The notes under the pieces were generated by a model that did not search any database, was not told the origin of the DNA, and saw only the letters and a program-made list of their open reading frames with translations. From Paraspadella gotoi (lineage: Eukaryota > Animalia > Chaetognatha), in contig CM119271.1 of the NCBI GenBank assembly GCA_051294375.1, positions 15,320,770-15,384,769 on the forward strand: 64,000 bases of DNA. The letters run 5' to 3'. Below are positions 9,622-61,882 of the stretch, one piece after another. How positions within the stretch are numbered: position 1 is the stretch's first letter; each line of letters opens with the position of its first letter. A program made the position numbers and the translations under genes.

Positions 9622-10700
9622 ATCCTTATGCTTTTAAGATTTTTTAAAAACTGCATCAGTTTTTTCAGAAACTTGATAAATTTTTTCAAACTTGCATTCC
9701 GTCAAAACTTTTATATCTAGCTTCTTCCACTCAACTTTCCTACCGCTCACAAAATTTCATTCTAAATCTATCATGGGTTAAAATAAAAATAAAGATTCAA
9801 GTAAATGTGACTCATATTTTTTCATTTAAACTCATTTTACACTGGGTACGTTTTCCACTGAAACTTTATATCAACGCTTCGTCAACGGTTTCCTACCCAC
9901 ACACAAAATTTCAACTCAATCTATCCATCAATCTGATTAATTAGAGTATTTTATTGGTTTAAAAAGTAAAAAGATTTAGTAAATTCGAAACTATGTTTTC
10001 CATTTAAAACTAATTTCCAACTCACACAATTCCATCGATAATTTTATATCGCGCTTTATCAACACACTTTCCTACCCACACACAAAAATTATTTTCCAAT
10101 CCAACCACCAATCACGACAGTTATTGGAGCTTTTTGCTAATGATGGGGAACGGATGGACGATTGATTTGACTAAATTAATTAATTATTGATTAATTATTT
10201 ACCTAATTGATTAAGTTAACTGATTAATTATTTGATTATTAATAACATCCTCCAGGTACATTTAATATAAAAGGAAAAAGAAGCATAACAATTAGTAAAC
10301 AGGTTTTTTGTTTTTTTCCATTTAAATCATTTCCACTCAACTATTATTCAGTCGAAACTTGATTTCCTGTTCAAGATCACAACACTTTCCCCTAACCCAC
10401 ATACAAAATGTCCACAGGTCACTCAGCCATCCACCAATGAGCAAATTGTGTTCAATAGTGAAATATATTTTTTGTTTTTTTCCAATTAAAACTCATTTCA
10501 CTCGGACGATCCATCGAACTAATATCCAGCTCATCACACACTTACTATCCACAACAAAATTTCATTTAAAAATCGCATCCATCCATCACGAAGTAATTGG
10601 TGTTTTTTTTTGCCTAAAGGTGACGACGGACGACGCGACGGACGACGGACGGACGGACAAACAGACTAGGACTGACGACATCATTTTTTTTTGCATAATT
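9622..10700 (+). mobile_element. Dispersed repeat with internal tandem core repeats (Helentron-associated/DINE-1-like)
   Basis: About five ~170-bp subrepeats (ttttccatttaaactcatttccact...gaaactttatatc..cttt cctacccacacacaaaatttc) ending in a (GACG)n tract at 10622-10660; direct copy at 36379-37125; partial copy at ~49420-49570. Confidence 0.7.
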
Positions 10701-16509: not shown

Positions 16510-16710
16510 GAAAATATACAATTGAAACATTCTTTTAAATATTATACCACTTCATTGATAGGGAAGCCAGGTACTCTGGGAGTGAATAAACGAGACTGTG
16601 AGAGAGTCTTGATTGAAAGCTTGCAGGGACCTGCAATGTCATTATCTTGTAAGAGTGATGGAGGCCTTAAATCACCAAAGCCTGTCCAAAGTCTAGGGCA
16701 AGATAGCTTA
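16510..16710 (+). mobile_element. Dispersed SINE-like repeat (family 2), copy 1
   Basis: ccacttcattgatag...gcagggacctgc...gatggaggccttaaatcaccaaagcctgtccaaag; reverse-complement copies at 30501-30606 and 55339-55535. Orientation is relative. Confidence 0.8.
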
Positions 16711-17560
16711 TTTATTAAATGCACGGATAATTTTATAATGGTTTTACTAATTTCATAACATAAAAGATATATCAAGTCAATGATATATGATATATATCAT
16801 CGCCAGAAGGACTTTGGGATCGCGTAGTAGTCAGCCATCAATTCCTACAACATAAATGTCACAGTCAACTCCAGCAAAGTCAACTCCAGCAAAGTCACGT
16901 CGGCGTCAACAACATTTTTCCCGCAATCGAATTTCGCCGCCAAATTCGACGCCGCAATGACGCGACGACGACGACGACGACGTCAAAGATAAGAGTCTTT
17001 CAAACGCCTCTTCAAAAAAGAAAAAATAAAAATCCCTAAAATAAAAATAGAAAATTTCCAACTTCCGCATTTAAACCGAAATCCTAAATCCTAACCCTAA
17101 AAACTCCCTCGTTTCTTGACTACCTCATGGAACCCTCTATTGCTAACCTTCTCTCTAACTGCCTATCTCTAACACTCCCCTACTCTAACCTCCCCAACTC
17201 AAACCCCCCCTTCCTGGAAAAGTCGCGATTCTGTTTGCATAACTCGTCTCTTCTGAGAGAAAAAGAAGAGAATGGAACTTTGTTAGCATATTAAATCTGC
17301 GCTCGCATTTCCGGTTGGAGAAAGACGCCACTCTTTTGTTTGCATGTATGAGAAATCTTTTGAGCGTATCTGTGGCTACAAAAATATTTTATGAAGTATT
17401 GTATATTAAGAAATAGTCAAAATAGTAATACTTTGTTAAAAGAGTACAAAGTATGAAGTTAATCCCTTAAAACAAAACAAAAAATTAAGTTTCTCTTTAA
17501 ACTTTGATTGAACCTTTTTTAACCATCAAATATATTTCTTTATAAAAAAAAAGGCACAGC

Positions 17561-17871
17561 TTTGTTCGCATGTATTAAAAATCCTTTTGATCGCATCTTT
17601 CTTCTCCCAAAGACGCAAATTTTGTTCGCATGTATTAAAAATCCTTTTGATCGCATCTTCCTTCTCCCAAAGACGCAAATTTTGTTCCCATGTATTAAAA
17701 ATCCTTTTGATCGCATCTTTCTTCTCCCAAAGACGCAAATTTTGTTCGCATGTATTAAAAATCCTTTTGATCGCATCTTCCTTCTCCCAAAGACGCAAAT
17801 TTTGTTCCCATGTATTAAAAATCCTTTTGATCGCATCTTTCTTCTCCCAAAGACGCAAACTTTGTTTCCAT
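17561..17871. repeat. 60-bp tandem repeat x5 with 120-bp higher-order alternation
   Basis: Unit tttgttc(g/c)catgtattaaaaatccttttgatcgcatctt(t/c)cttctcccaaagacgcaaat; degenerate units upstream at ~17230-17370. Confidence 0.97.
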
Positions 17872-20094: not shown

Positions 20095-21090
20095 CACACA
20101 CACAAAATAACCTCGAGGAGCCCGTCCTTCCGTTTTTTTACCAGCAGCGATTTGACACTAGTATGCAAATGAGATTATAGGATTCTCTGGTAGAGAATAA
20201 AGAAAATCCTCTCAGCCAGAGAATATGAATTCCGAGAACAAATCCTTTGAAAAGAAAAAAGAAAGAAAAAAACTTTTTTTAATCTGTTCCTTCGAAGCTG
20301 TTATTTCTCTCTCTCTCTCNNNNNNNNNNNNNNNNNNNNNNNNNNNNNNNNNNNNNNNNNNNNNNNNNNNNNNNNNNNNNNNNNNNNNNNNNNNNNNNNN
20401 NNNNNNNNNNNNNNNNNNNNNNNNNNNNNNNNNNNNNCTCTCTCTCTCTTTCCTTGCGATCGGATATATTAAAATCTTTTTCTTAGCTCAACCTTGGAAA
20501 GATCGTTCATGCATAACAAATTAGATTTCTCGAGAAATAACGACTTTTTTTCACTAAACGAGGGAAAAAATTACAGTTTTTCGTACACATTTTTTTTTCA
20601 AGATTTGATCTTAATTTTTTCGTGAATTTTCTTCACAAATGTTTTGGTGTAAATTTGTAGTTTCAGTAGAGAAACCAACTATCGAACCATAGCGATCTTG
20701 TAAGAGAGATGGAGGTATTAACGCACAATAACCTGTCTATATTCAGAAGGTAATATAGCTTGTTTAATGTTTAATTGTTTATTGTTGCAGAACTCCCAAA
20801 AAAATTTCAAAAATATTCAAACACTAGACAAAAAGCATTCATTAAACTTTTTTTTCAGTTAAAAATTTCCCGAAGAAAATAACAGCGCTCGCGGCATTAA
20901 ATACAGAAACGTCATCCCCGACACAGTAGCATCTATTATATCAGCAGCAGTATCAACTACAGCGGCAGCATCAACTACAGCGGCAGCCCACAACAGCAGC
21001 CGCGTTCTCACTTTTGGCAAAAATCATTCATCGAGACAAAAGCGATCGATCATTGTCATCATCCACTTCATCATGGGTGATCATCACTCC

Positions 21091-21216
<126 letters not shown>

Positions 21217-21224
21217 AAACTCAC

Positions 21225-21423
21225 GTCATAATGATGTTGCGTCGCCGATGCCATGGGCAAGAGCGAGTTGTCGACGGCAGATCCCATTGCGCCCATGGAC
21301 GACCCCATGGAGGCGCCCATAGAGGCGCCCATTGAGGCGCCCATGGAGGTGAGACCGGCGGCGATGTAGGAGACGGAGGAAGCGAGGGAGGAAAGGGCGG
21401 ATCCGGCGTGGGGCGCCATCATG
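21225..21423 (-). CDS. Internal exon D of the minus-strand TF-like gene (phase 2 to 0)
   Basis: ctctctccAG acceptor and GAC|GTGAGT donor; MMAPHAGSALSSLASSVSYIAAGLTSMGASMGASMGASMGSSMGAMGSAVDNSLLPMASATQHHYD; in phase with exon C. Confidence 0.8.
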
Positions 21424-21917
21424 CTGGAGAGAGGGAGGGAGAGATGGAGAGAGGGAGGGAAGAGAGAGAGGGGGGAGTGAGGGAGATAAAGAGGAAAGGA
21501 TGGAAAGGCGGAAGAAAGGGAGGAATAAGGGGAGGAAAGGAAAGAAAGGAAAACGAGGAGAGAAATAAAGGAATTAATTTCTAATAAAATTGATGACGAT
21601 GATGAAATTGTGGATTTTCAATTTTTATCACATTTTTTCGACTCGATTTTGAGCGCCATTTTAGACGCCATTTTTTTTCTTAACTCTTTCCTTTTACTCC
21701 TTTTTTTCCTTTCAATAGTTTCTTTTCTTCCTTCTCTTCCTCTCATCTCCCTCTCTCTTTCTCCTCCTTAATTTTTTTAAAAAAATGTTTTTCTTCGCCT
21801 CTCTCCAAAAATATCTTTGACGTAAAAACAGAAAACAGTTTTTTGTTTTCTTTTTCGCCAAAACAAAAACAAACAGAAGCGAAGGAGCGTGAACGATTCC
21901 TTTTCTGTTTTGGGAGA

Positions 21918-23379: not shown

Positions 23380-24001
23380 CTCTCCTCTCTCTCTCTCTCT
23401 TGCTCTTTCTCTCTCTCTAGTCTCTGCCTCTCTCTCTCTCTACAGCAGTCTCTCTTCTCTTCTCTCTGTCCGCTTCGGTCCCCCCAGCGTCCCAGACCCC
23501 GCGCCCCTCTTCGACCCTCCATTGCACCTCGTTCGTCCTCTTCATCCTCTTCACTTCGATCGTCCTCTACTCTCCTCGACGGTTCCCAACTCTATTTCTC
23601 ATCCGTCTACTCTCTCCCTCGTTCCTCCAGTCTTCGAATGAAATTATGGAAATGGGGGGAACAAATCGGGGAAGCGAGAGCCCGCAAGGCAGAGAAAGAC
23701 AGAGAGAGAGTCAAGTATTTTTTTTCTCTCTCTCTCTCTCTTCGTTTGTTAGATTTTTAATATTCAAAGCAAATAAGATTTTGGCTTATTATGCTGGCGA
23801 CTTTTTTTTTCGTGTTTTTACTACAATGAATTTCGACGAATAAGAAGATTGTGGATCTATTCTTTTTTTTCTTTTTTTTTTTTGCGTGCGACTTGTTTAA
23901 CCCGAATTATTCTAAATTAAGTTGAATTACACAAGTAAGTTTGGCCACTGGCCCGAAAAGTGAATTATGATTGGATGATAGCCTTTTTTGTGATAATAAT
24001 G

Positions 24002-24197
24002 AAGACTTATGGTGGACTAAAATCCACCACCCGTTCATCGACGGCCATTGGTGCCGTAGGCAAGTCATTCGCCTCCCAACCCAAAGGTCCGGGGTTCTAG
24101 CCCGGTGGCCGCCTAGCAGTTAAGAGGGACGGGGCGCTTAACCCGCCTGTAACACGGTGTTACAGCCTGATCCGAAGCTCAGGGACTGAATATTGAA
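24002..24197 (+). mobile_element. tRNA-Gly-derived SINE-like element carrying a twister-like ribozyme (family 1), copy 1
   Basis: Head ggccattggtgccgtaggcaagtcattcgcctCCCaacccaaaggtccggggttctagcccggtggcc (24043-24110) with A-box-like, CCC anticodon-arm-like and B-box-like parts, and ends that pair. Homologous copy on the minus strand at 50796-51014. Confidence 0.8.
24115..24190 (+). ncRNA. Twister ribozyme, type P5 permutation (predicted)
   Basis: cagt(P5)-taag-agg(P2')-GA-CGGG(T1)-gcgct-T^AA-ccc(P2)-GC(T2)-ctgtaaca/tgttacag(P3)-cctga(P4)-TCCG(T1)-AA-GC(T2)-tcagg(P4')-g-actg(P5'); predicted cleavage between 24139 and 24140. Confidence 0.75.
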
Positions 24198-24902
24198 GAG
24201 ATATCAGGAATTCAGGAATGATGCAAAAAGAGCAATGTAAGAAGAATGGTCAATAGTCAATTTCAATAGTTAATCGTCAATACATGAATATAATTTGCTA
24301 ATATTCACAAATATTAAAATGGAATGCAAATAAAGTTCACGTATGATTTTAAGAACGACCAGCGATGTTGTAAAAAATTGATGGAGAAATGGGTTGTTAT
24401 TGATACCGTTACTGTTTTTGTATTTAACAATTGTGTTAATATCGTTTTGTTATTAAAAAAAGGGATGGAGAAAATAAAATAAAAATCTCTTAGAGCATTT
24501 GAAAGACATTTGTTCTATTTATTCATGCAAATTTTTATTTTTCAAAAGAAAAAATGGCTATGATGAATAAACCGTTCAAAAATTAAAAATCCTTTACTAA
24601 AGGCTTTAGGCTGTAGCACCATGCTGCACTTTGCTACAGGCTTCACTGGCTACAGCATTTTAAGACACAACTTTTGTATTTTTCAATGACTATGTTTTTC
24701 TGATAAACTTAAACTGTTTTGTCTGTTTTCTTCCGTTTTTCTGTTTTCTCTTTCCCTATTTTCGCACCGACTATTTTCTTCGTCGGAACTACTTTTTTTT
24801 CCTCTCGATTTCTCCGCCGATCGAAATCTTCGCTTCGCTTCTCTCCTTTCCTCGATTCCCACAATTTATTTCTTTTCTTTCTCAATTTGTTTGTCGGAAT
24901 TG

Positions 24903-30289: not shown

Positions 30290-30500
30290 CTGAGAAGGAA
30301 TTTGAGAAATGATAAGCGATGAAAAGTAAGAATAATTATTAATTATTAATTATTAATCCATGGTTAATTTTAACTCATGGATATATTATAATTTTTCGAC
30401 TATGATTAATGTATACTAACTATTACAAAATAGTTTAATTAAAATAATGGCTTTATGAAATCGGTGTAACCAATATAAAATTTTTCCAAACCTCTAATGT

Positions 30501-30606
30501 TGCCCCTGATTTTGGATAGGCTTTGGTGGTTTAAGGCCTCCATCACTCTTACAAGATAATAACATAGCAGGACCCTGCAAGATTTCAATCAATATTCTCT
30601 CACAGT
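30501..30606 (-). mobile_element. Dispersed SINE-like repeat (family 2), truncated intronic copy
   Basis: Reverse complement of ~16595-16700. Confidence 0.8.
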
Positions 30607-33245: not shown

Positions 33246-33400
33246 GTGTGTGACGAGTATAATGCCGGATATCCAAGTGTGTGACGAGTATAATGCCGGA
33301 TATCCAAGTGTGTGACGAGTATAATGCCGGATATCCAAGTGTGTGACGAGTATAATGCCGGATATCCAAGTGTGTGACGAGTATAATGCCGGATATCCAA
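33246..33400. repeat. 31-bp perfect tandem repeat x5
   Basis: gtgtgtgacgagtataatgccggatatccaa, head-to-tail with no spacers. Confidence 0.97.
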
Positions 33401-33877
33401 GGTCTGATGGAAGTTCATTAGTCAGTGTCGGATGTCAATGAAAGAACAAAATTTCAAAATTTGATTTAAAAATGTATTGGCAGATTTGAACAATCAAAAG
33501 TGGGGATTTTTTTAATGCGGTTATAGATTTGCTGTAACTATTTTGTACCGGGAATTGAATGATATTGGTAAAAAAAAATATAAGTTTTTTGATTTGAAAT
33601 TTAACTTTATCATCAAATTAAAAAAGTGATTTACAATAAACTTACCCAGACAAAGCTTACCTTAAGAAAACACTAATATTTCACGCCCCCTATTGCAGTT
33701 TAATATCTATATTTAACTTAAGATTACATTACATTTAACGTTGAATTAAAAAATACTTAACATTACATCCCCGCGATAGATTTTTGAGTCTCGAGCATCG
33801 AGAAAGTTTAAAGTTTTGAATCGGAAACCAAGAGATGTCGCTTGGCTTATCAAGTGGAATTGCAGATTACCGTTACG

Positions 33878-36378: not shown

Positions 36379-37125
36379 TTCCTTATGCTTTTAAGATTTT
36401 TTTAACTTGCCATCATTTTTCAACTTGCATAATTTTTTCAACTTGCATTCCGTTCAAAAACTTTTATCTTAGCTTCTTCACTCACTTTCCTACCGGCTGA
36501 CAAAATTTCATCTCAATCTATCATGGGTTAAAATAAAATAAAAACTTCAAGTTAAATTTGTGACTCATATTTTTTCATTTAAACTCATTTCCACTGGTTA
36601 CGTTCCAACTGGAAACTTTATATTCAAGCTTCGTCACACATTTTCCTACCCACACACAAAATTTCAACTCAATCTATCCATCCATTATGATTAACTTTAG
36701 AGTATTTATTTGGTTAAAAAATTAAGTTAAAAAGATTTTAGTAAATTCGACTTATTTTTTTCCATTTAAAACAATTTCCACTTCACACGATTCCATTCGA
36801 AACTTTATATTCCAGCTTTATTCACACCACTTTCCTACTCACACACAAAATTTAATTTCCCAAATCCAACCAGGCCAATCACGAGTATGAGTTTTTTGCT
36901 AAAGAGGCGACGGATGACGGATTTATTGACTAATTGAATTAATTAAACTGATAATTATTTGATTTATTAATACACCTGCATATACATTTAATATAAAAGG
37001 AAAAAGAAGGCATAATCAATTAGTTAAAACAGTTTTTTTGTTTTTTTCCATTTAAACTCAATTTCCACTCAAACTATTCTATCGAAACTTGATTTCCTGT
37101 TCAATCACACACTTATCCTACCCAC
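36379..37125 (+). mobile_element. Second copy of the Helentron-associated/DINE-1-like repeat
   Basis: Collinear with 9622-10400. Confidence 0.75.
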
Positions 37126-42372: not shown

Positions 42373-43466
42373 TCTATTCCTCTGTCTCTCTCTCTTTCTA
42401 TCTATCTTTCTGCCTTTCTCTCCTCTCAACTTCTCTCTCTCTCATCCATGACTCTATCTTTTCTACCTTTCTTTTTCTCTTCTCTACCTTTCTCTTTTTT
42501 TTCTTCTCCTCTCTCTATATAAACCTCTCTCTCTCTTTTCTAATTCTCTATTTTCTTTCTTTTTCTACTTCTTTTTATCTCTCTTTCTCTCTCTTATTTC
42601 TCCCTCTTAATTTACTTTTCTTTTTCTATTTTTTTCCCTAAAACTTTAAAAAATTCAACTTTTCCATCTTACGCCCCCCTAGCTTCCCCCCGTCCTCCGT
42701 TCGAGGGTCCCGAACCACAAGTTTTCCGAACATCTCCCCGCAATTATTTTTTTTTTCTTCTCTCTCTCTCTCCACTCCTCTCTCTTCTTCCTAGGAATCC
42801 CACTACTCGCACAGTTGGTGCTTCTCTCTCTCTCTCTCCTCTCTCCTTCTCTCTCGTCTCTCCTCTCGTCTCTCTCTCTCTCTCTCTCTCTCTCTGCTTC
42901 TCTCTCTCTCGCTATCGATTTCCTTTAAAATCCTTTAAAGATGGTGGAAAGTCCTTCGCTGACGGCGGCGGAGCAGTTCGACGAGGCTCTAATCGAGCTC
43001 ATGGCTAGAAGGGCTCTCGCGCGCTCGGACGGAGGGAGGCGAGAGAGTTTGCCGGAGAGTGTTATTGCCTCAGATGTGTTAGTTCGGCCCAAAGGTGCTG
43101 TGCCGCACGGGCGGCGTAGATGGTTGGATTTGCCAATAAAGTTTTCTCAATAAGAGCGTTTGTCGTGAATGAACCCCATAGTGGAGACAAGTTTGCGGGA
43201 AATTGGCGAAGAATAATACGGTTAAGCTGAGCACAATAAGGGTATAATGTAAGAGACAATGTTATTAAACTTCGGAATGGTTGTGCGGAAAGAGTTGACC
43301 GTTGTGCTAAGATCTGGGAGGCGCACAAAGTATGAAAAAAGAGTGCGCATCAATTCAGGAAGTAAACCTTTTGGAAAACTCACCAGAGAGAGAGCGAATC
43401 CGGCGCCGCAGAACCGGAGAAATCTGACCGGCACAGAATAGATGTTAAAAGCAATCATCAGGTTAC

Positions 43467-43502
<36 letters not shown>

Positions 43503-43619
43503 AGAAGAGAGAGCAGAGAGAAGTAGTCTAACTGATTGAGATCAACTTCTATAATCTCCAAGGCAATCTTCTACATCCCTCGGGCTTCTACGAGTGGGAA
43601 GAAGAGAGAGAGAGACGAA

Positions 43620-43654
<35 letters not shown>

Positions 43655-44973
43655 AGAGAAGAGAGAGAGAGAGAGGAGAAGAGAGCGAGAGAGAGAAGGA
43701 GATGAGAATATTCACAAATCAGCCAATGAGTTACATTCACTGAGAATTCTCACACCAATGAAAATCTCCTTTTTTACGTCCCCAGGTGTTCGAAGACAAG
43801 ACGGGGAGCGCTCTAATATCTGAACTTCAGCGTCTTAAACAACTTAACAGCGATCTAGAATCGATGTTAAATCGTAATCTTAAATGCGATGAAAGGCAGT
43901 TACTTAACAAGCTGAACAGGCTTTCAACGGAGTCGGCGCAGCGGGGAATCCCTGGGCGTTAGATCCGGTGCTTCCGTATCCGTCGTGCTCGCTCTGGGGC
44001 GGTCGGTATTCGACGAAACTCCGCCGCGCGTGGGATCTTCGCTCGATTTAATGGCCTTAAAAGATAGATTCGAGGTTTAAGACTGGAGAGGTCTGTCGCG
44101 TAAGCAAGATATGAATGTCCCCGATTTAAAGCTATCTTTGTTTTCGGCCATCGTAAACGCTGATGTGAACAAAAGGAAGAAGAAATTGAATATTGCGCAT
44201 CTTGAAGTGGCAGATGCTGGTGGCCCTAAAAATGACTCTAGGATATTTGGAGATATATTACGGAAATGTAGTAGAAAGACAATCAAGTCATAATAAGGAC
44301 CAAGAATTAAGATATAATTTAAATGGTTATACTACGAACCTTTACACAAGACCACATGATTTAATTAATGAATAGTAACAGAGAAGAACATTTTTATTAG
44401 AGTAACCATAAAAAAAGTACAAAACAAAATCGAAAACTTGTCAACAGAGTAAATATATCAGAGTATAAGAATAAATGTTTTTGCTTAAATGTAAAAATTT
44501 AATGGTTAACAATATGATGCTTTTTTCGAGTAGAAGGACAGAAATTTGTCCTAAGCATCTCATCTCTCTACTCTCTCTCTCCTCTCATCTTTCTCTTTTT
44601 TTTTCTTCCCTTGTTTCCTTTTTTCCTACTAGCACTAGAATGATGCCTATATTTTTCTCTCTATTTCTGTCAAGGAATCGAGCCATAACTTATTCTATTT
44701 TGTTTATGGTTTCCTTCCTCCCTTCCTCCTCCTCCTCCTCCTCTTCCTCGTCTCGTCGGCCATTTTTTCTTCAATTTCATTCTTCCATATTTCTTCGCCG
44801 GCGCCGCTTTTCAAATGCTGTTTCTTTCTTTTTTCTTTTTCTTTTCCTTTTTTTTTTCTTTTTAATTTCTTTTCCTTTTTTAATTTTCTTCTTTTTTGTG
44901 TCCTCTTTCCGTTCTTTTTCCCCACACTCTCTTCCCTATGCTTTTTCTAATCTCTCTCTCTCTCTCGTCTCTG

Positions 44974-45006
<33 letters not shown>

Positions 45007-45890
45007 CTCCTCTCTCCTCCTGCTCGTCTCTCTCTCTTTCTGTCTCTCTCTCCCTTTCCTTCGGTTTTTTTTCCTTCTCCATATTTATCTCCCCTTCAAT
45101 TTCTCTCGGAACATATTTCTTTCGTCTCCCCGCTAGCCCTCTCCCTCTTCCACTCTCTTTCAACCCTCTCTGCTCTCACCTCCCCCTCTCCCCTCTCCGC
45201 CGTCTCTCTGCTCCCCTCCCCTTTCTCCATCTCCCTCGCCTCTGTTTGTTTACTGTTTACGCGGTCGGCAAACTTTGTCTTCCCAAACAATTGAAAACTG
45301 CGCGATTGTCCATTTTGACGCAAAAGTCCTTTTTAGATTTGGGCCCTGCCTCCGCCTCGTCGTCGTCCGTCGTCGTCGTCGTCGTCGTCGTCGTCTCGTC
45401 GTCGTCTGTGGCTCTCAATGCAACGACGCATTCCTTTGGGGAAAACGATTTTTTTGTAAACTGAAAAAAAAAAAGGATAGAAAGAGAGGAGGAATGATAG
45501 AAAGAAAAGGAAAAGGGAGGAAAGCAAGAGAATAAGAAAGACAGAAAGAAGAAAAAGGAAAAAAAGAAAAAAGAAGAGAAGCGAGAAAAGAACAGGAGGA
45601 AAATAAAGGAGGAAAGAAAGAAAGAAGAAAGAAAGAAAAGAAAGAAAGAAAGAAAAAACACTGAAAAGAGAAATAAAAAAAGGGAGAGTCAAATCAGTAA
45701 ATCCGCAAGTTATGCTTCCATTTTGGTTTTAAACTCACCCATTTCTAAAACATCCAAATTTTCCGTCGTCTAAACCTCTCCTTCACTACCACCTGATTTC
45801 TCTTTCCTTGCCTCTTAGAACCCTCGCGCTTCTTAACTCCCTTTCCTGCTTCACTTTCCAATTAACTTATCTCTCTGACTCGCCCAGACA
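42373..45890 (+). repeat. ~3.5 kb duplicated unit, copy 1
   Basis: Collinear with ~60580-64000, differing mostly by indels; pieces also at 56082-60470. Confidence 0.92.
42941..44310 (+). CDS. 3' exons of an unidentified protein-coding gene within the duplicated unit
   Basis: Three exon-like blocks (~42941-43221, ~43270-43461, 43786-44310) with AG/GT borders in several copies. Cross-copy consensus gives DVEVLRDGGGAVDEALIELMAKGLSALGREG... and ...RRYECPDLKSLFSA.NADVKKGEEIEIAHL..DLSGLKISRILEISECG...; family not recognised. Confidence 0.5.
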
Positions 45891-46093
45891 GTGTCTCGAA
45901 CGCTTCAGCCTTCTCTTTCGGAAATACGGTGCAAAGCTTAGAACCAATCATTGGTCTGTTACTGTTTCTTTCTTTCTCTGTCTTGTGTCTTTTCACTTTA
46001 ATAGTTAGATGATGAAATATTCTCATTCCGTCTTTTCATATAACGTTCTCTCCTGATATTCTTCTCCTGCGCCTTATATTCATTTTTTAACTT

Positions 46094-49289: not shown

Positions 49290-49575
49290 AACAAGGTTGA
49301 GCAAGGAATGTCGATCTGCCCAGATCATTATCAGTAATTAATAATTAATTTATTCAAGTTAATTCTTTAATTGATAGGCATTTGATCGAAATGTTGTTTT
49401 CGATTGATTAATATGACTGATTAAATTAATTATTGATTAATTAATGACTTAAGTGATTAATTAACTGATAATTATTTGATTAATAATCATCTTGCATTAC
49501 ATTTAAAGATAAAAAGAAAAAGAAGCGTAATCAGATTAGTGAGAGAAGGGTTCTTTGGTTTTTTTTCCATAGCAA
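49290..49575 (+). mobile_element. Fragment of the Helitron/Helentron-like repeat family
   Basis: 5' part matches 7906-7960; 3' part matches 10170-10320 and 36930-37050. Confidence 0.55.
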
Positions 49576-50508: not shown

Positions 50509-53500
50509 ATGTCGAGAGCAACTGCGGTATTCTTTATAATCTTTGTAGTCTTTTTCAATGCGTCGGCGAAGTTACACCTTAAAAGCAGGGTAGAGTCATT
50601 TATTTGTGGAAACTGGTAAACATGCTAGAAAGAGAGCGTGCGATCATAAAAGACATGCAAAAGCAGAGAAGAAAGTATTAAAGTACGTCGCCAGGTCGAA
50701 GTATGTCGCTTGAAAGAGTGTTGGTTATTGGTGATTGAAAGTCGAGCACACCAATGAGAGACAGTATACATTGCTATGAGTAGTGGACAGAACCGTTCAA
50801 TATAAGCAGTCCCTGAGCTTTCGTGATCAGGCTATAGACTCGCGCGTAACAGGCGGGTTACAGCGCGCCCGTACCCCTTTTAACTGCGCTAGTCGTCAAC
50901 CGGCGCTAAGAATGAGTGTCCGGAACGAACTGAGTTGGGAGGCGAATGACTTGACGTCCTGCACAAACGCCGCCGTAATGACCTTCGTTGGGGATTTTAG
51001 TCTACATAAAACTTAATTTTGTTATAGAAATTATTGTTAACTCTCATGAATGTTCACTGGTAATAGTGTGTTCATATTGGACTATTAGAATTTTCATATG
51101 TGACCTATCATTACGCTCTAGATATACAGCCGCTTTTTTACTTACTATTTGTACACAAAGGTCTCTAAAACTCAAGCAAGCCGATCTTGGAAAAAAAAAT
51201 TGGCAAAGCCTCAAAGGTGGACCAAAAAGTTAAAAATGGAGAATAAGGAACGCAGCTGCCGCAATCTGCTCCAGCTCCAACCTCAGGCTGCTGGATCAAT
51301 ACACTGGATGTTCTGACTTGTGACAAATCAAAATATGAATGTCCAGTAAAAAGAATAAACAAATAAACCATAAGGATATTAATATCGGGGAAAAATGAGA
51401 TTTCGGATGCCGTTAGCAGCAGCTAAAGGCCACGGAAAGCCCGAAGAACAATCAGATTTCAGCGACTCAGCGGTTTTAATGGTGCATCGAAGGGTGAATA
51501 CCAACCCTCTGGCCTGGAAAAAGTCAGAGAGTAGGAAGGCCCGGGGCGCAAAAGCGGCCGTCCTGAGCAAGAAGGGAGAGAAGCAAGGGGCCGCATGGTG
51601 GCCCATGGGGTGTGGGCGTGGCCCTTATGAATGGATGTTTTGGCGAACAATTATAAAAAAAAGGTGATCCTTGCTCACAATTGCACGAGTTTACCCCATT
51701 TGTACCTCAACGATCTGATTGACTGCAAAGTTTCCTCGGAGTTGGTTTCGATGATGGACACAGGCTACTCATCTACTTTCCAAAGTCGAAAAAAAGAATG
51801 TCATCACATCGCACCGCTGTGCTGGAAAAGCCACCTTATGGGAGAAAGATGTTCGCCTAGAGGTTGCATGACGCCTTAGGCAGTTATCGACTACTGCTAT
51901 ATAACACAGACCTCTGAACACTTGGGCTGAAAAGAGACACTCGTCCGAATGTATCATTCGAAAAGCAGTTGCAAGAAAGCCAGTCCGGAACAACAAGCAA
52001 TGTGTCCAGATGGCAATAGAATCCGGCTGACTAATGGGGCGAAGGCTTTGGTGGAAACCTTGCACGATGTTGGAAGCATGCTTGGTCTAAAAATAGGAGG
52101 GCGCTCAAGGGGGCCCAAGTAGGAGCAACCATTGGCGCGTCTAACTACTTGGGGTTTTGGAACTGGAACAGGGTCTGCGAAGTTCAATAGCGCCAGTGGT
52201 AAGGCACGAGAAAGTCACATGCTTAGCAGCACGACAGTCGCGATCGCGGAGCGCTGGTTCTGCTGCGCCATATCGATAGCCATTCTTGGAAGGCCAGATC
52301 TAAAGCCTTTATGAAACTGTTTCTAGATGAGTCAAGGCCGGCAGGATCTTTCAATTCGATGTTCTATACGATATTCTAAACCTTCCGAGTTTCTTATTTT
52401 AAGAACTCAAATGGCGGATGTCAAAATTCAAAATTTTTTTGATGAGGTGGGACACTCATCGTTGGGTAAACGATCTGCAAAATTTTGGAGGTGAATATGC
52501 GACATCACAACGGACTTCAAGAAAAGAGTCACAACCTCGTCGTCAGCATCGAATTTGCATGCAAGCGCGAAGTCTGAATTTGCTGGGACTCGATGAGCGT
52601 CTTGAAAAAAGCAGCTTTGAACAGAAAGAGATCGTGGTTTGGATTTCTTGTCTGTGGAGGGAGTTTTCAGCAAGATCAGGCAGCAGGGCTTCAGGGTGAC
52701 CGAAGAGAAGAGAGGGGCTAAGTAAGAAAAGGCCTCTCAAAGGCGAGAGGAGCATAATGAATGACAATCGCGAGTTTAGTCAGACCACGTCTAAGTGTTA
52801 GAGGTGCGGCAACCCAGAAATTGCTGCTGGCTATTACCGGTTTTTAACACTCCAGAGTTTAAGGATTTGGTTCAACAGCAATGGCTTAAGAGTAATTGAA
52901 TGACCTATGTTCGTCCTTTGAATTCACGCTGGTTAACTTAGCAGGCATACTTAACATGAAGCATAAATAGCTTGATTTTCCTATTGACAAAATAGAACAC
53001 AGGATGCTTTCAGAAGGCTGGCTCTGTTGGAAAAAAGACTCCAAAAGTGGTTTGACATATTTTAGCAACAGTGGAGAGCAAAGGTTGACAACAACAAAAA
53101 CACTTTTAGCCACAGACTTAGAGCGTAATTTACTGTAAATATGGCAAATCAAAAAGAAAAATTTAATGGAGAATTTGTTACAAAGCAAACTTGCTTTGGA
53201 AAGGGCGGGGAAACCATTTTATGGCAGAAGGACCCGTTCTGCTACCGAGCAACTTGAATATTGTTGGTGGTGGACACGGCTGTGAGTCGAAAAACCATAG
53301 AAAATGTCAAGAACGACAATATCCAAACAAAAACCTTGGCCAAAGAATGAATTAAGAATCAAAGAAGGCAGGAATTTAAAGGTTGTATTCAACATGCGCT
53401 ATGGGTCTGGAGAAGCATAGCTAAGATGGCAGAGTATATTGTAAAATTTTTTAACAAATCGAGTGGTAGACAAAATATCCTGAGACTAAATTTCAAAAGT

Positions 53501-55888
53501 GAAGTTCAGCTGCCAAGACACAGGACAAAAAGTGCTATAGGGATTTGCATTGCAAAATCTTCCATGCTGTTACGATGAAACAACCAAGGATTTGTAGCAT
53601 CAATCAAAAAAAGATTCAAGAAGTGGCTTTTGGTGGTTGAAGGACCTGTGGCAAAGCAGTATCCTTGAAATCCCTGATGGGAGAATTGCTAAAAGTATTG
53701 ATCAATTGGTGTTTTGTAACTTTGGCAGATGTCAAGTTGACCTAACAGCCACGGATAGCAGCATCAAGGAATGGCAGGATCATGCATTTATTTCAAGGCG
53801 GCGTCAAAGGCAGCATCTACTGTGATGCACGAGCGCGACATCCCTGAGCAATACCAAACTTGGTCCTGACTTCAATGACATTTTGAGGCGTCTGTCCTTT
53901 TTATAAAGGATGAAAGTGGATGAGAGCTTACAAGTCCAAACCCAGTGCGGACTCTTGGTGAAGAGTCTCTTTTCAACGGGATTGCTTTGTCTGCTTCACA
54001 AAATCGAGTGAAAAGTTTGAAGGTACATTTGACTTGACTAAACTTTGGTTTGGGGTTCCTGATTGATTAATAAAAGATTATGATAGTAATGATAATAATT
54101 ATAATAATGAACTTATTAATGCTCAGGATTGTATTAGGCAAGGCGGCCGGAGGAAAGGAAGTGAGGCCGTGGTCCAAGCTCCTTTACCTTCCCGGATGAC
54201 CTAAACTTTTGATGCAATGTCACTTCAGCCTTTGGTTCTGGTGAGACAGAAGTTGGCATAGGCGACGTTCGTGTCATAAACCACAAACTCAAAGAATGCC
54301 GAATGCGGGAAAGGGCTTGACATCATCAATGGACAGTGTGAGCTGAAGTGCCATGAGGAAGTGCAATGATGCAATCAGCCCCTGGACGATCCTGGCGGCT
54401 GCAAATCTTTGCAAAATCAGAAGGTCGTTGGTTGAAGGGCAAAAATCGTCCTGCCTTCACAAATGCGGGATCGAAGATGACGGAAGAATGGGGATACTTG
54501 GTATCTTGTCCAAAAGGAACTAGAATTTCTGATGGAGACTGCGTGGGTGAATATATTCAGCTGATTACCATATTGTACCATTAGTCATCTCGTGATAAAT
54601 AATATTTCATACCTGTGTGACATAATTGGTTATGAGATAGGTACTTTTAAGTAGTTTGGTAAATAAGTAACTAATTTTCAAAGTATATTGTACAAGTAAT
54701 AACTAAATCTATCGGCAAAAAATTTTTTTTCAAATGATAATAATTGATTAAATTCAAGTTAATAAGCTATTATAATTAAAATTTGCTTTTCTTGAGATGG
54801 TGGATGAATGCGCTCTTAAGCCGTGTAAAAATGGTGGTACTTGCGTGAAAGATTTGGAACATTGGTACTTATGCAAATGCACCAAGCAGTACAAAGGAGA
54901 AACATTGTGAAACACGTAAGCACTGTAGTATGAGCACTTGGATGTGGACCACATATGATTTATAAGTACAGTTGTGGAACATGGAATCCATGAAAGAATA
55001 TGCAAAAATATTTAAAAAATAAATCATTAAAGACTTTAAATTTTTTGTACATTTTAATAGGCAATCAAGCCATGTTACCTATATCGCGCTGTCAGAATGG
55101 AGGCGTCTGTACCAAGCCTGGATAAATGAATGATTCATGCAAATTGTAACCATTTGTTCCAAGGGAGAGAATTGGGCGAGAAAGGTAAAACCAGAACAAA
55201 GGCTAATCGATTACTCTTGGGTAGTTGTTGTCGATACAAAATATTACTTAATACACATTAAATTGAAAATGTCCCGTAAGGATATTGTATGAAATTGGTA
55301 CAACGCAATAAAAAAAAATTTCATTCATTTAATAAATTAAGCTATCTGCCCTGACTTTGGACAGGCTTTGGTGGTTTAAGGCCTCCATCACTCCTTACAA
55401 GATAATGGACATAGCAGGTCCCTGCAAGCTTTCAATTCAGAACTCTCTCACAGTCCGTTTATTCACTCCAGAGTACCGTGGCTTCCGCTATCAATGAAGT
55501 GGACAATGATTTAAAGAGTTAGTGTTTCAATGTATGAAAGTATTAGATTAGTGATTAGATCAGGGAATACTTTATTGGTACTCCGCACTAGATCAAAATA
55601 CAAGGAGCTGAATTTTATGAGAATTGGTGCAACAACAGTAAAAATATTGCCCATGTGGTTTGTGTGTTTGAAGTTGTTCCCTTGGAACTAGAGAGGTGGA
55701 TGGTTTGATTACTCTAGAACCTCTGGTCATAGACCGAAGTGGTCGATAGAAGTCAAAAGATTGTTTTTCAAAGTTCTGGACGGAGTGCGCGACGCACATC
55801 CTTGCAAAAGATGAGCGGGCGATGCATTTCGAAACCACACCGGCTATTGTCTGCGAATGCGTGAACGGCTAGCGCAGGACTAAATGCG
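50509..55888 (+). CDS. Secreted MACPF (perforin-like) protein with furin-like Cys-rich and EGF domains; multi-exon, indel-noisy, 3' end not seen
   Basis: Signal peptide MSRATAVFFIIFVVFFNASA (50509); FLGVGFD (~51731); YE.LFLDE..PQDLSI (~52310); FLMRWDTH....SAKFGG MACPF signature (~52437-52492); furin-like ..ECGKGLDIINGQCELKCHEE.C (~54300); EGF exons VDECALKPCKNGGTCVKDLEHWYLCKCTKQYKG..CET (54797-54915), ..CQNGGVC.. (55061-55184) and ..ECAT.HPCK..C..GY.CECVNG..G.KC (~55775-55888). Confidence 0.82.
50796..51014 (-). mobile_element. tRNA-SINE/twister element (family 1), copy 2, intronic in the MACPF gene
   Basis: Reverse complement aligns with 24002-24197, including caagtcattcgcctcccaac, taacccgcctgt and gcctgatc.cgaa.gctcagggactg; ribozyme part at 50805-50887. 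Confidence 0.78.
55339..55535 (-). mobile_element. Dispersed SINE-like repeat (family 2), intronic copy
   Basis: Reverse complement of 16510-16710. Confidence 0.8.
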
Positions 55889-56081: not shown

Positions 56082-56590
56082 NTCTCTCTCTCTCGATGTC
56101 CTTTAAAATCCTTTAAAGATGTGGAAAGCCTTCGTGACGGCGGCGGAGCAGTCGAGAGGCTCTAATCGAAGCTCATGGCTAAAGGGCTCTCGGCGCTCGG
56201 ACCGAGGGGAGGCCGAGAGAGTTTGCCGAGAGGTTTTGCCAGGGTAGTTGGCCCAAAGGGTTTGCCCCGGGCGGCTAGCTGGGTGATTTGGCCAATAAAA
56301 TTTTCTCAAAAGAGCGTTTGTCTGAGAACCATAGTGGAGACAAGTTTGCGAAAACAATTTTGCGGAAAGAGATAAACGGGTAAGCTGAGACAATAAGGTT
56401 ATAAAGATTTCTGATGGTTTGCGGAAAGAGTTGACCCGCTTGTGACTAAGATTGGAGGGCGCACAAAGTATGAAAAAAAGGTGCGCACATCTCAGGAAGT
56501 AAACCTTTTGGAAACCACCAGAGGAGACGAATCCCGGCGCCGAGAACCGGAAATCTACCGGCACCGAATAGATGTAAAAAGATCATCAGG

Positions 56591-56631
<41 letters not shown>

Positions 56632-57945
56632 AGGAGAGACAGAGAGTTAGGAGAGAAAAGAGAGGACGTATGAATTAGCGAGTATCAAAGGAGAAAGAAA
56701 AAAGAGGGAGAGGGAGAGAAGAGAAGACGTATAGAGAGGTAGAGAAAGATAGAGAAGAGAGAGGAGAGAAGAGTAGATAGGTGCTAGGACAAACTTTCTT
56801 CCTTCTACTCGAAAAAAGAATCAATATTCGTAACCATTAAATTTTTACATTTAAGCAAAAACATGTATTTTATCCTTTATCGCTGAATTTTACTCTGTTG
56901 ACAAGTGTTTCGATTTTGTTTTGTACTTTTTTTTATGGTTGTATCAAAATAAATGTTCTCTCTCTTTATATTATTCATAAATGTGGATCTTGTGTAATGG
57001 GTTCGTAGTATAATCCATTCTAAATTATATTTCTTAAATTCTTGTCCTATTATGACTGATGTTCTTGTCCACATTCCGTTATAATATCTCCAAAATTCCT
57101 AGAGTAGTTTATTAGGCCACTCAGATCTGCCATTCAGATCGCAGATATTCAATTTCTTCTCCTTTTGATTCACATCAGCGTTATGGCGAAACAAAGATAC
57201 TTTAAATCGGGACATTCATATCTTCTTATCGCGACATGGCCTCTCCGTCTTAAACTTCGAATCTATTTTTAAGGCCATTAAAGATCGAGCGAAGATCCCA
57301 CTTGCGCGGCGGAGTTGTCGTCGAACCTGACCGCCAGATGCGAGACAGCGTGATACGGAAAGACCCGCATCTAACGCCCAGGGACTCCCACGCTCGCCGA
57401 CTCCGTTCGAAAGCCTTTCAGCTTGTTAAGTAACTGCCTTTCATCGCATTAAGATTACGATTTAAACATCGACTCTAGCATCGCTGTTAAGTTCGTTTAA
57501 GACGCTAGAGGTTCGATATTAAGTCGCTACACCCGTCTTGTCTTCGAACACCTGTGGACGAAAAAAGGAGATCTCTTCATTTGGTTGTGATGTAATTCTC
57601 TAGTGATGAACCTATTGGCTGATTTTGTGAATTTTCTCCTCTCTCTCTCTCGTCTCTTCTCTCTCTCCTCTCTCTCTCTCTCTTCTCTCTCTCTCTCCTC
57701 ATCTCTCTCCTCTCTCTTATCTCTCTCGCTCTCTCTTCTTCCCACTCGTAAGCCGAGGATGTATGCAAGATTGCGCTTGGGGATTATGCAGAAGCTGAAA
57801 TCTCAACATTAGACATAGCTCGTCTCTGNNNNNNNNNNNNNNNNNNNNNNNNNTTCCCACTCGTATAGCCGAGGGATGTAGGGATTTGCCTTGGAATAAG
57901 AAGTTGATTTCTCAATCTAGCTTAACGTCTTCTCTCTCTCTCTCT

Positions 57946-57989
<44 letters not shown>

Positions 57990-59206
57990 CCTGATGATCT
58001 TGTTAACATCTATTCGTTGCCGGTACAGGATTTTCCGTTCTCGGCGCCGGATTCGTCTCTCTCTGGTGGTTTCCAAAAGGTTTTACTTCCTGAGATGTGA
58101 TGCGACTCTTTTTTCATACTTTGTGCGCCCCCAGATCTTAGTCACAAACGGAGTCAAACTCTTTCCGGCCAACAACCATCACGAAGCTTTTAATAACTTT
58201 TGTATTTACATCTAACCTTATTGTCTCAGCTTACCCGTTTATTCTCCCAATTTTCCCGCAAACTTGTCTCCACCATGCGGTTCATCACGACAAAACGCTC
58301 TTTTGAGAAATAACTTTATTGCAAATCAACCATCTCGCGCGCCCGGCGCATCACCCTTTGGGCCGAACTACACATCTGAGGCAAAACACTCTCCGGCAAA
58401 CTCTCTCGGCCTCCCCTCCGTCGAGCGCGCGAGAGCCCTTCTAGCCATGAGCTTCGATTAGAGCCTCGTCGACTGCTCCGCCGCCGTCAGCGAAGGACTT
58501 CCACCATCTTTTAAAGGATTTTAAAGGAATCAGTGGCGAGAGAGGGAGAAGCAGAGAGAGAGAGAGAGAGAGAGAGAGACGAGAGGAGAGACGAGAGAGA
58601 AGAGAGAGAGAGTAGAGAGAGAGAAGACCACTTGCGAGTAGTGGGATTCCTAGAAGAAGAGAGACGAAGGTGAAGAGAGCAGAAGAGAGAGAAGAATATA
58701 ATAATAAATAATTGCGGGGAGTATGTTCCGAAAACTTGTGGTCTCGGACGCCTCGAACCGAGGAGACGGGTGGGAAGCTAGGGGCGTAAAGATGGAAAAG
58801 TTATGAATTTTTCAAAGGTTTTAGCGATAAAAAATGAAAAAGAAAACGTAAATTTAAGAGAGGTAGAATTAAGATACGAGAATAGAGAGATAAAAGAAGT
58901 AGAAAAGAAAGAAGATATTATGAGAATTTATGAACAAGAGAGAAGCAGGTATCTAAATCGAGAGACGGCGAAGTAAGGAAAAAGAGAAAGGAGAGAAAAA
59001 GGGAAAAAGAAAGGTAGAAAAGATAGAGTCATGGTGAGAGAGAGAGAAGTTGAGAGGAGAGAAAGCAGAAAGATAGATAGAAAGAGAGAGAGACAGTAGG
59101 AATGACATACTGAGAGAAAAATAGAGATAGAGAAGATTAGAGACAGGCAAGATAGAAAGATAGAGACAGCGAGAGGGGGGACAACCCAGAGAGGTATAAT
59201 TCTCTC

Positions 59207-59243
<37 letters not shown>

Positions 59244-60101
59244 TCACAATCAGCCAATGAGAGTTCAATCCTCAGAGAATTTCCACCAATGAAAGATCTC
59301 CTTTTTTCGCCCCAGGTTTCGAAGACAAGACGGGGAGCGTCTTATATCGAATCCTAGCGTCTTAAAACGAACTTAAAGCGATCTAGAATCGATGTTAAAT
59401 CGTATCTTAAATGCGATGAAAGCGTCTTAAAAGCGAACGGCTTTTCAATGGAGTCGGCGAGGGGATTCCCTGGGCGTTAGATCCGGGCTTCCGTATCCGC
59501 GTCTCGCTCTGGCGGTCGGATTCGACGAAACTCCGCCGCGCGGGATCTTCGCTCGATTTAAGGCCTTAAAAAGATTCGATTTAAGACGAGAGGTGTCGCG
59601 ATAAGAAGTAATGAATGTCCCGATTTAAAGTCTTTGTTATCGCCATTTAACGCTGATGTGAAAAAAGGAGAAAGAAAGTGAAATCTGCGCATCTGAGTGG
59701 CAGATCTGAGTGGCATAAAAATATCTAGGATTTTGGAGATTTCGGAATGTGGACANNNNNNNNNNNNNNNNNNNNNNNNNNNNNNNNNNNNNNNNNNNNN
59801 NNNNNNNNNNNNNNNNNNNNNNNNNNNNNNNNNNNNNNNNNNNNNNNNNNNNNNNNNNNNNNNNNNNNNNNNNNNNNNNNNNNNNNNNNNNNNNNNNNNN
59901 NNNNNNNNNNNNNNNNNNNTATTGAATATATAAAGAGAGAACATTTTTGTAACATAAAAGAAAGTACAAAACAAATCGAAACTTGTCAACAGGCAAATTC
60001 AGGATAAAATAAATTGTTTTGCTTAAATGTAAAATTTATGGTTAAATATGGAATCTTTTTCGAGTAGAAAGGAAGAAATTTGTCCTAGCTATCTCTCTCT
60101 T

Positions 60102-60174
<73 letters not shown>

Positions 60175-60470
60175 TCTTCCTATTTCGTTTTTCCTACTAG
60201 CACCTAGATGATCCTGTATTTTTTCTCTCTATTTCTGTCAAGGAATCCATCCATAACTTATTCTATTTTGTTTATGTTTTCCTCTCCTCCTCCTCCTCCT
60301 CCTCCTCTTCCTCGTCTCGTCGGCCATTTTTCTCAATTTCATTCTCCATATTTCTTCGCCGGCGCCGCTTCATCTGTTTTCTTTCTTTTTTCTTTTTCTT
60401 TTCTTTTTTTTTCTTTTTTATTTTCTTTTCCTTTTTTCTTTCTTCTTTTTCTCTCTTCCTTTACTCATTC
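56082..60470. repeat. Shuffled and inverted fragments of the 3.5 kb unit
   Basis: 56082-56600 (+), 56780-57830 (-), 57854-59210 (-) and 59235-60470 (+), each matching part of 42373-45000; junctions fall in GA/CT tracts or at N gaps. Confidence 0.9.
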
Positions 60471-61062
60471 AGAGAGAATTATACCTCTCTGGGTTGTCCC
60501 CCCTCTCGCTGTCTCTATCTTTCTATCTTGCCTGTCTCTAATCTTCTCTATCTCTATTTTTCTCTCAGTATGTCATTCCTACTGTCTCTCTCTCTTTCTA
60601 TCTATCTTTCTGCTTTCTCTCCTCTCAACTTCTCTCTCTCTCACCATGACTCTATCTTTTCTACCTTTCTTTTTCCCTTTTTCTCTACCTTTCTCTTTTT
60701 TTTCTTCGTCCTCTCTCGCTATAATAACTCTCTCTCCTCTTGTTCTAAATTCTCTATTTTCTTTCTTTTCTAACTTCTTTTTATCTCTCTTTCTCTCATC
60801 TTATTTCTCCCGTCTTAAATTTACTTTTCTTTTTTCCATTTTTTTCCCTAAACTTTAAAAAATTCAACTTTTCCAATCTTACGCCCCCTAGCTTCCCCCC
60901 TCTCCGTTCGAGGGTCGCCGAACCACAAGTTTTCCGACATCTCCCCGCAATTATTTTTTTTTTCTTCTCTCTCTCTCTCCACTCCTCTCTCTTCTTCCTA
61001 GGAATCCCACTACTCGCACAGTTGGTGCTTCTCTCTCTCTCTCTCTCTCTCCTTCTCTCTCG

Positions 61063-61095
<33 letters not shown>

Positions 61096-61651
61096 ATCTC
61101 TGCTCTCTCCTCTCTCTCTCCCTCATCACTCGATTGTCCTTTAAAATCCTTTAAAAGATGTGGAAGTTCCTTCGTGACGGCGGCGGAGCAGTCGACGAGG
61201 CTCTAATCGAGCTCATGGCTAAAGGGCTCTCGGCGCTCGGACGCGAGGGGAGGCCGAGAGAGTTTGCCCGGAGAGGTTTTGCCAGGGTAGTTGGCCCAAA
61301 GGGTTTGCCGCCGGGCGGCTAGCTGGGTGGATTTGCCAATAAAGTTTTTCTCAAAAGAGCGTTTTGTCTGATGAACCCGCATAGTGGAGACAAGTTTGGG
61401 CGAACAATTTTGGCGGAAGAATAAACGGGTAAGCTGAGACAATAAGGTTAATAAAAGATTTCTGATGGTTTTGGCGGAAAGAGTTGACCCGCTTGTGGAC
61501 TAAGATTGGAGGCGCACAAAGTATGAAAAAAAGGTGCGCAACATCCTCAGGAAGTAAAACCTTTTGGAAAACCACCAAGAGAGAGCGAATTCCGGCGCCG
61601 AGAACCGGAAAATCTACCGGCAAGAATAGATGTTAAAAGAATCATCAGGTT

Positions 61652-61704
<53 letters not shown>

Positions 61705-61833: not shown

Positions 61834-61882
<49 letters not shown>

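Follow-up and report, generated by a model that had tools for sequence, protein, structure and literature searches.

A high-copy, tRNA-headed repeat family in the genome of the chaetognath Paraspadella gotoi carries a P5-permuted twister-type fold that may cut as a strand-swapped dimer

Introduction

How can a short retroposon keep its internal promoter when a self-cleaving ribozyme lies behind it? For a SINE head followed by a ribozyme, 5′ truncation of the copies is expected (Kojima, PMC5786205). Since a cutter placed behind the promoter should destroy the self-copying of a SINE, a family as abundant as the one described here must control its cutter or have silenced it. The question is raised by a 64,000-nt stretch of the Paraspadella gotoi genome (hereafter, the window), in which a sequence-only reading had described a tRNA-Gly(CCC)-like head fused to a twister ribozyme of type P5 and had named the element a candidate SINE-like retrozyme. 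The letters of this element are found in the window as described. We propose that it belongs to a young family of SINE-like retroposons, likely transcribed by RNA polymerase III (Pol III), and that its twister may cut efficiently only in a strand-swapped form made of two copies, a model that we hold tentatively and place slightly on the doubtful side.

Repeat family and its genomic setting

Ten public sequencing runs contain this sequence, none of them recorded as RNA, and the contigs of five were aligned to the copies of the element; run X9, which may consist of RNA, was not taken as a sign of expression. Copy 1, on the plus strand, spans 24007-24188 without its 3′ tail and has sharp 5′ junctions in these contigs. 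At 24007/24008, 133 contigs in run X1, 100 in X3, and 31 in X9 pass from the element into AT-rich flanks that are unrelated, so that the copies must number well over a hundred. The span originally given, 24002..24197, fails at both ends, the start being at 24007/24008 and the family running past 24188 into a shared tail. The complete family unit, of about 250 nt, comprises a 33-nt hairpin leader, the tRNA-Gly(CCC)-like head, the P5-permuted twister fold, and an AT-rich tail; leader and tail were both missing from the structure first proposed.

Contigs aligning to copy 1 account for 11,628 of the 7,042,937 contigs in X1, 1,927 of 688,116 in X3, and 658 of 448,509 in X9, and for none of the 392,053 contigs of run X10, from organism B. 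The summed depth in X1 reaches about 4.5 million as compared with 150-225 on the flanks, a value which does not represent copy number because overlapping short contigs can inflate it many-fold. Considering the contig counts, this contrast in depth, and the presence of two copies in 64 kb, the repeat probably exists in thousands of copies or more. Identity among most family contigs is 90-99%, and the repeat is a young, high-copy, dispersed family in an animal genome. Dispersed monomers do exist, since single contigs (three records) continue for more than 1 kb of unique flank past the tail without a second copy. In the search for arrays, the contig tables show dispersed monomers, although collapsed tandem arrays would be hidden there. 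A single joint in run X1 leads from 24068 to 24008, that is, from the middle of the head back to the start of the element, so that part of the 5′ end is duplicated in tandem.

A second copy, already noted some 27 kb away on the opposite strand, was indeed found on the minus strand at about 50757-51009, with 75% identity (E=3e-21), approximately 50 nt of tail (50757-50806), and a predicted cut at 50860/50859. Copy 2 is diverged and apparently damaged by indels in the assembly. Since overlapping contigs differ by many indels at this copy and in its flank, its letters cannot be trusted and were left out as covariation evidence. These indels of the public contigs relative to the window, at and beside copy 2, together with the frequent frameshifts in the coding-like stretches of the window, indicate that the assembly is locally error-prone.

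The window as a whole is microsatellite-rich eukaryotic DNA and contains 3,260 N. A long coding-like stretch with many frameshifts, then followed by EGF-like exons, extends over 51383-55130 on the plus strand and probably represents a gene for an extracellular protein of an animal, disturbed by errors in assembly; one EGF-like exon near 54800-54900 matches Pfam EGF with E=4e-4, just under its cut-off. The portion next to copy 2 (51383-54600) was considered as a possible partner retroelement and rejected, as its six-frame translations (stops as X) contain no reverse transcriptase (RT) or GIY-YIG Pfam match, and the EGF-like exons downstream on the same strand make it probably a host gene. No Penelope-like or other reverse-transcriptase ORF was detected in the stretches of the window that were scanned. 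An ORF at 21087-21617 (minus strand) matches Pfam Forkhead_N (E=7e-5), a match which may be spurious, the ORF being of low complexity (rich in M, G, A, and S) and the forkhead core motif being absent from the window. Other repeats are also present. A further dispersed repeat, about 250 bp long, occurs as four pieces with 76-90% identity (16516-16757, 55288-55535, 30497-30606, and 20695-20766); by eye, we take it to resemble the end of a LINE reverse-transcriptase ORF, and the two pieces scanned have no Pfam matches. Three pieces of about 80% identity (9623-10387, 36380-37114, and 49406-49570) belong to an AT-rich repeat some 750 bp long, which contains sub-repeats of about 150-200 bp. A multi-kb block recurs several times, in both orientations, between 42376-45891 and 56083-64000 (79-93% identity) and represents either a segmental duplication or an assembly artefact. 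Short tandem arrays that are almost perfect occur at 17561-17871 and 33246-33401, their periods being about 60 and 62 bp.

tRNA-like head, leader, and tail

The degenerate tRNA-Gly(CCC)-like head (24040-24114, plus strand) is called by ARAGORN at the relaxed -ps85 cut-off as a possible pseudogene, one of four calls in the window of which the other three are probably noise; ARAGORN with default settings does not call it in the window, and Rfam gives no tRNA match in the surrounding 401 nt. Its acceptor and T stems are paired and its anticodon stem is broken by two C-C mismatches, from which we conclude that the head is tRNA-derived but not a tRNA. It carries a Pol III A box-like motif (24049-24060, plus strand) and a B box-like motif (24093-24103, plus strand), each with one mismatch to the consensus. 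They are spaced by 44 nt and constitute the sole such pair in the window, comparable pairs being found by chance in 198 of 600 shuffled windows and in 30 of 20,000 shuffles of the head. A family variant present in three runs (corresponding to window positions 50820-50935) combines a B box of canonical form with a deletion that extends from the T arm as far as loop 4 and takes out the cut site. No T4 stop occurs within copy 1. The twister had been placed within 5 nt of the head, which agrees with P5 beginning 2-3 nt past it. In the copies, the predicted cut site is still preceded by the head, and none of the best 18 of 435 loose ends starts at 24140.

Upstream of the head, the leader forms a hairpin (24010-24029, plus strand) with a 7-bp stem and a 6-nt loop that starts 3 nt inside the sharp end of the element. 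Its fold is more stable than expected (z=-3.1, with 0 of 200 shuffles as good), and it is conserved across the family with the exception of a majority change at 24030. By eye, a 9-bp inverted repeat can be recognized, with its 5′ arm at 24029-24037 (plus strand) and its partner in the tail (50791-50799 in copy 2), which is perfect only with the family majority letter at 24030. The 5′ end of the leader lies 42 nt upstream of the A box, further than a Pol III transcript usually starts; a simple Pol III transcript would supply such a leader less readily than a template that is tandem or circular.

At the other end, the loose ends listed past 24188 share one tail that matches copy 2, and those listed beyond 50786 agree on at least 30 further letters. 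About 60 letters of this AT-rich tail are visible, and neither poly(A) nor a LINE-like 3′ end is seen within them. Copy 1 ends without this tail and is bordered by two 11-mers, at 23995-24005 and 24189-24199 (both plus strand), that are identical at 10 of 11 positions, a match equalled by 28 of up to 20,000 random flank pairs. They probably constitute an 11-bp target-site duplication, seen at one copy and overlapping tail-like letters: eight letters of the right 11-mer coincide with the first part of the family tail, a resemblance that weakens the test and through which microhomology priming would explain the missing tail of copy 1. No target-site duplication was found at copy 2. The original idea of a SINE-like retrozyme is upheld in part, as regards its tRNA head, Pol III boxes, twister-type fold, high-copy interspersed distribution, and probable target-site duplication.

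The twister-type fold

The order of the elements behind the head is P5-permuted, as had been read from the letters, and follows the published Schistosoma mansoni layout. All elements lie on the plus strand. The 5′ strand of P5 (24116-24121) pairs with 24184-24188 and, in the family, also with the first bases of the tail. It is followed by the 3′ strand of P2 (24124-24127), which provides two G-C pairs and either a C.A mismatch or a bulged A24125, and by the 3′ strand of L1 (24128-24132), which includes the predicted general base G24128, A24129, and the 3′ strand of the T1 pseudoknot (24130-24132). The P1 segment (24133-24138) is a self-complementary hexamer (G.U, G-C, C-G). The 5′ strand of L1 (24139-24141) contains the predicted cut site U24139/A24140, with A24140 as the predicted general acid, in the S. 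mansoni arrangement. Then come the 3-nt 5′ strand of P2 with the GC of the T2 pseudoknot (24142-24146), which pairs with 24177-24178, and the P3 hairpin (24147-24165), with 8 bp and a 3-nt loop, in or next to which the commonest family variants are located. P4 and L4 (24166-24183) consist of 4 bp plus the closing pair A24170-U24179, the 5′ strand of T1 (24172-24174), A24175, A24176, and the T2 partner (24177-24178). The P4 strands are 24166-24170 and 24179-24183, and the chain ends fall within P5 (24117-24121/24184-24188), as in twisters of type P5.

The letters expected at the catalytic site are present (U24139, A24140, A24141, G24128, and A24129), any other letter at these positions remaining below 5% in the family contigs. 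Judging from the letters, T1 would form three Watson-Crick pairs (24130-24174, 24131-24173, and 24132-24172), with A24129 and A24175 also present, and T2 would form its two GC/GC pairs (24145-24178 and 24146-24177). The sequence-only reading had given T1 as UCCG:CGGG; the CCG/CGG part of it stands, with one pair swapped on both sides relative to S. mansoni, whereas the fourth pair does not, as G24133 belongs to the P1 segment. That reading was also right about the 8-bp P3, but it omitted two family-wide features, namely that P1 is self-complementary and unable to form a normal hairpin, and that the pair closing L4 is A24170-U24179 in place of a near-invariant G-C. In addition, P2 falls short of the published S. 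mansoni P2, with a 3-nt strand versus 4 nt. Its mismatch had been regarded as a defect of one copy, but it is the state of the family, no second letter reaching 5% at 24125 or 24144. A G in loop 4 had been suggested for the control mutant; the predicted general base is instead G24128 in L1, the loop in which the general base of twisters is placed (PMC11662667).

Variation within the fold is scarce. A second letter at 5% or more is listed at four positions (24130, 24135, 24154, and 24155), none of them in the catalytic site, T2, P2, P4, or L4: 24130 C>T maintains T1 with a U.G pair, 24135 C>T lies in the P1 segment, 24154 A>T breaks the last P3 pair, and 24155 C>T is in the P3 loop. At every position of the fold, copy 1 agrees with the family majority, apart from the P3 loop, where the family is split almost evenly, and its oddities are consequently family features. 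This low variation may reflect the youth of the family rather than selection, and, for CpG decay as a test of selection, the variant frequencies sit at the 5% listing limit. By comparison with the S. mansoni twisters, both sides have changed in one T1 pair (C-G to G-C) and in the pair closing L4 (G-C to A-U), which suggests selection for pairing in the ancestry of the motif.

Could this resemblance to twisters have arisen by chance inside a GC-rich repeat? Loose criteria do leave room for it: a loose descriptor had one match in the window but also matched 63 of 200 shuffled windows, and a descriptor with a 5-bp P4 and P5 matched 19 of 400. With the full descriptor (published loop-4 letters, P3, and P5), which was tightened after the sequence had been inspected, copy 1 was the sole match in the window and none of 600 shuffled windows matched. 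Shuffles of the element itself matched the loose descriptor in 6 and the strict one in 2 of 20,000 cases. The Rfam twister models, the check suggested in the sequence-only reading, yielded no match, either at the gathering score in the window or at E<=10 in the 401-nt and 96-nt segments. This outcome, which that reading had itself listed as a ground for refutation, goes against it, and it could also speak for chance. Hammerheads had no Rfam match in the window or in the 401 nt, where a weak P26 match (E=3.1) is irrelevant. The predicted stability of the twister region, with pseudoknots not scored, was no better than that of shuffles (z=0.52). Nevertheless, in both order and letters, the elements agree with the arrangement published for S. 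mansoni (PMC8501958), P3 even opening with the same five bases, and we consider a chance origin highly improbable. By its sequence, the fold is twister-type, and we file it as such rather than as canonical type P5 because three consensus features and the Rfam test failed. As Rfam is blind to it, similar elements may be common and unannotated. Pattern scans for relatives gave 0 and 0 matches in metagenome contigs. The matches in viral contigs (1, 0, and 0) and prokaryote genomes (2) were all three discarded as chance, having neither a tRNA head nor the rest of the fold. Distant BLAST searches of the head and of the fold against phages returned weak partial matches only (E 0.7-8).

Palindromic P1 segment and proposed mechanism

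A self-complementary hexamer is expected by chance with a frequency of about 0.04. As a hairpin, this P1 segment could form 1-2 bp at most (G.U, or G.U plus G-C around a 2-nt loop), whereas two molecules could form 6 bp. In metazoans, type I hammerheads that have a helix III of 1-2 bp with a palindrome in its loop undergo cleavage as dimers (PMC4209133, PMC7229834). In a comparable twister dimer, a 6-bp P1 would join the two molecules, each fold being made of the 5′ half of one and the 3′ half of its partner. The predicted energies, in which pseudoknots are not scored, allow this model without proving it. The swapped dimer (-46.9 kcal/mol) compares with -35.2 for two active-like monomers (2 x -17.6); the minimum free energy (MFE) of the monomer is -25.3, with T1 and P2 buried and the palindrome in a loop, so that the swapped dimer is 3.7 kcal/mol less stable than two misfolded monomers (-50.6), and an unconstrained dimer through P3 is predicted at -64.1 kcal/mol.

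We envisage the following life cycle. Probably, Pol III would transcribe the element from its internal boxes, and a partner retroelement would copy it through target-primed reverse transcription, a short duplication being left behind. With good but lesser likelihood, the fold would be able to cleave at U24139/A24140, with G24128 as general base and A24140 as general acid. A lone transcript may mostly adopt an inactive hairpin fold whose loop holds the palindrome, and would then stay whole and be copied with its promoter; two units brought together, by tandem read-through or in trans among abundant transcripts, could build the 6-bp P1 and release unit-length RNAs, maybe circularised like those of retrozymes. 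Taken together, these last two steps seem to us plausible, if falling somewhat short of probable. The partner might be a Penelope-like element, perhaps a Naiad, which is a doubtful guess. The most complete version of the model, a twister retrozyme that is a Pol III retroposon with a palindrome in place of the P1 hairpin, that cuts only as a strand-swapped dimer, and that is mobilised by Naiads, is unlikely to hold in all its parts. Gating by dimerization would answer the problem formulated by Kojima of a ribozyme behind a SINE head, given that the heads are kept here. If it were true, an unrelated ribozyme class would have converged on the dimer switch of the Penelope hammerheads, and the family would contain the first natural twister gated by dimerization and could account for the seeming lack of ribozymes in Naiads. 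The self-complementary P1 would be a simple and directly testable switch.

The joints of internal deletions also deserve mention. Among the best 15 of 33 joints, six lie within 5 nt of the predicted cut (24135-24145), where about 14% are expected (p ~0.015). Template switching at the end of a cut RNA may have generated this cluster, which is a weak hint, microhomology deletions being possible as well.

P1 is dispensable in other twisters (PMC5408937, PMC11662667), so a monomer may cut here without a partner, or the fold may be dead. A dead fold would make the family an ordinary tRNA-SINE carrying a twister inherited from the untranslated region of its partner retroelement, in line with the known LINE-derived SINE bodies (PMC5786205), and its full-length copies would spread well for this very reason. 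The three family-wide departures from the consensus (the short imperfect P2, the A-U for G-C, and the lack of a P1 hairpin), the lack of an Rfam match, the hiding of T1 and P2 in the MFE monomer, and the retained heads are all consistent with such a loss of function. However, the catalytic and pseudoknot letters are all intact, and two pairs have changed on both sides relative to S. mansoni. Moreover, in a large-scale assay of type-P1 twisters, with 1,948 natural ones scored, defects in P1 and P2 were well tolerated, unlike changes of the L1 catalytic residues and mismatches in the pseudoknots (PMC11662667). We regard the dead twister as unlikely. If the monomer were active, on the other hand, the family could follow the model of Sm-alpha and retrozymes, in which tandem masters produce unit-length, possibly circular RNAs that are reverse-transcribed from a fixed point, the dispersed copies being by-products. 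Sm-alpha works in this manner (PMC6765202) and, with P1 dispensable (PMC5408937), the 6-nt linker would probably span the gap. A leader upstream of the likely transcription start would be obtained most easily from a tandem or circular template, and the joints clustered near the cut site point in the same direction. Yet the contigs correspond to dispersed monomers with unique flanks, the junctions listed are at 24007/24008 and not at the cut site, and the cluster is weak, derived from part of the joints and with microhomology at several of them; we consider this cycle rather improbable too.

Alternatively, the family might be a non-autonomous rolling-circle DNA element of the Helentron/HINE type, in which case it would be read on the minus strand and its tRNA and twister sequence would be there by coincidence. 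Its terminal hairpin adjoining a subterminal inverted-repeat arm, its AT-rich junctions, and the poly(A) not seen in the visible tail would all suit a HINE. The subterminal inverted repeats (subTIRs) of HINEs, though, measure 12-15 bp, lie 2-4 nt from the 5′ end, and leave the target site unchanged (PMC4067079), whereas the repeat found here has 9 bp, its distances from the two ends are 22 and about 50 nt, and copy 1, where T-run junctions without a duplication would be expected, bears a probable one, making this origin very unlikely.

Comparison with known elements

The closest analogues are Sm-alpha and Sj-alpha of schistosomes, which are likewise short non-coding elements in which a self-cleaving ribozyme comes after an internal Pol III promoter, which reach very high copy numbers, and which cleave in cis or in trans (PMC6765202, PMC8490949). 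The analogy with Sm-alpha drawn at the outset is apt. They differ in that their ribozyme is a type I hammerhead, whereas a P5-permuted twister-type fold is found here, and in that a hairpin leader precedes the tRNA part in the present family. Non-LTR retrozymes and the hammerheads of Penelope pLTRs (PMC7229834, PMC4209133, bioRxiv 10.64898/2026.07.22.740005) share with it the nature of non-coding repeats of 170-400 nt, often dispersed as monomers, and a cut-site helix of 1-2 bp with a palindromic loop, those hammerheads cutting as dimers (PMC7229834, PMC4209133). Retrozymes contain type I hammerheads in tandem units, and the available portions of PMC7229834 and PMC4209133 describe no tRNA promoter in them; the present family is twister-type and tRNA-headed.

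With twisters of type P5 (reviewed in PMC5408937), the fold shares the order of elements, both catalytic residues, T1, T2, P3, P4, and P5, and it differs from them by having no P1 hairpin, an imperfect 3-nt P2, and an A-U pair where G-C is near-invariant. The T-variant twisters of Perere-3 and RTE elements (PMC8501958) are also twisters of animal retroelements with a weak or absent P1, but they are of type P1 and lie at the extreme 5′ end of an autonomous LINE whose start is defined by the cut, whereas the cut site predicted here is internal, behind the promoter-like tRNA head. Twisters at the 5′ end of RTE elements are also mentioned in PMC7761336. As to permutations, Eckert 2023 reports that further ones of the twister were not found (PMC10085705). 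The full-text literature searched, with subscription papers mostly outside it and without coverage of Repbase, Dfam, and SINEBase, contained neither a tRNA-headed element with a twister nor a natural dimer-gated twister.

Naiad Penelope-like elements resemble the family in their very high copy numbers in invertebrates and their insertion into AT-rich DNA, but they are autonomous, 3.4-4.4 kb long, and published as devoid of canonical hammerheads (PMC8557442). A hammerhead behind an internal promoter (Sm-alpha) and twisters at the 5′ ends of RTE elements were thus already known; the association of a tRNA promoter with an internal, permuted twister did not turn up anywhere in the literature searched.
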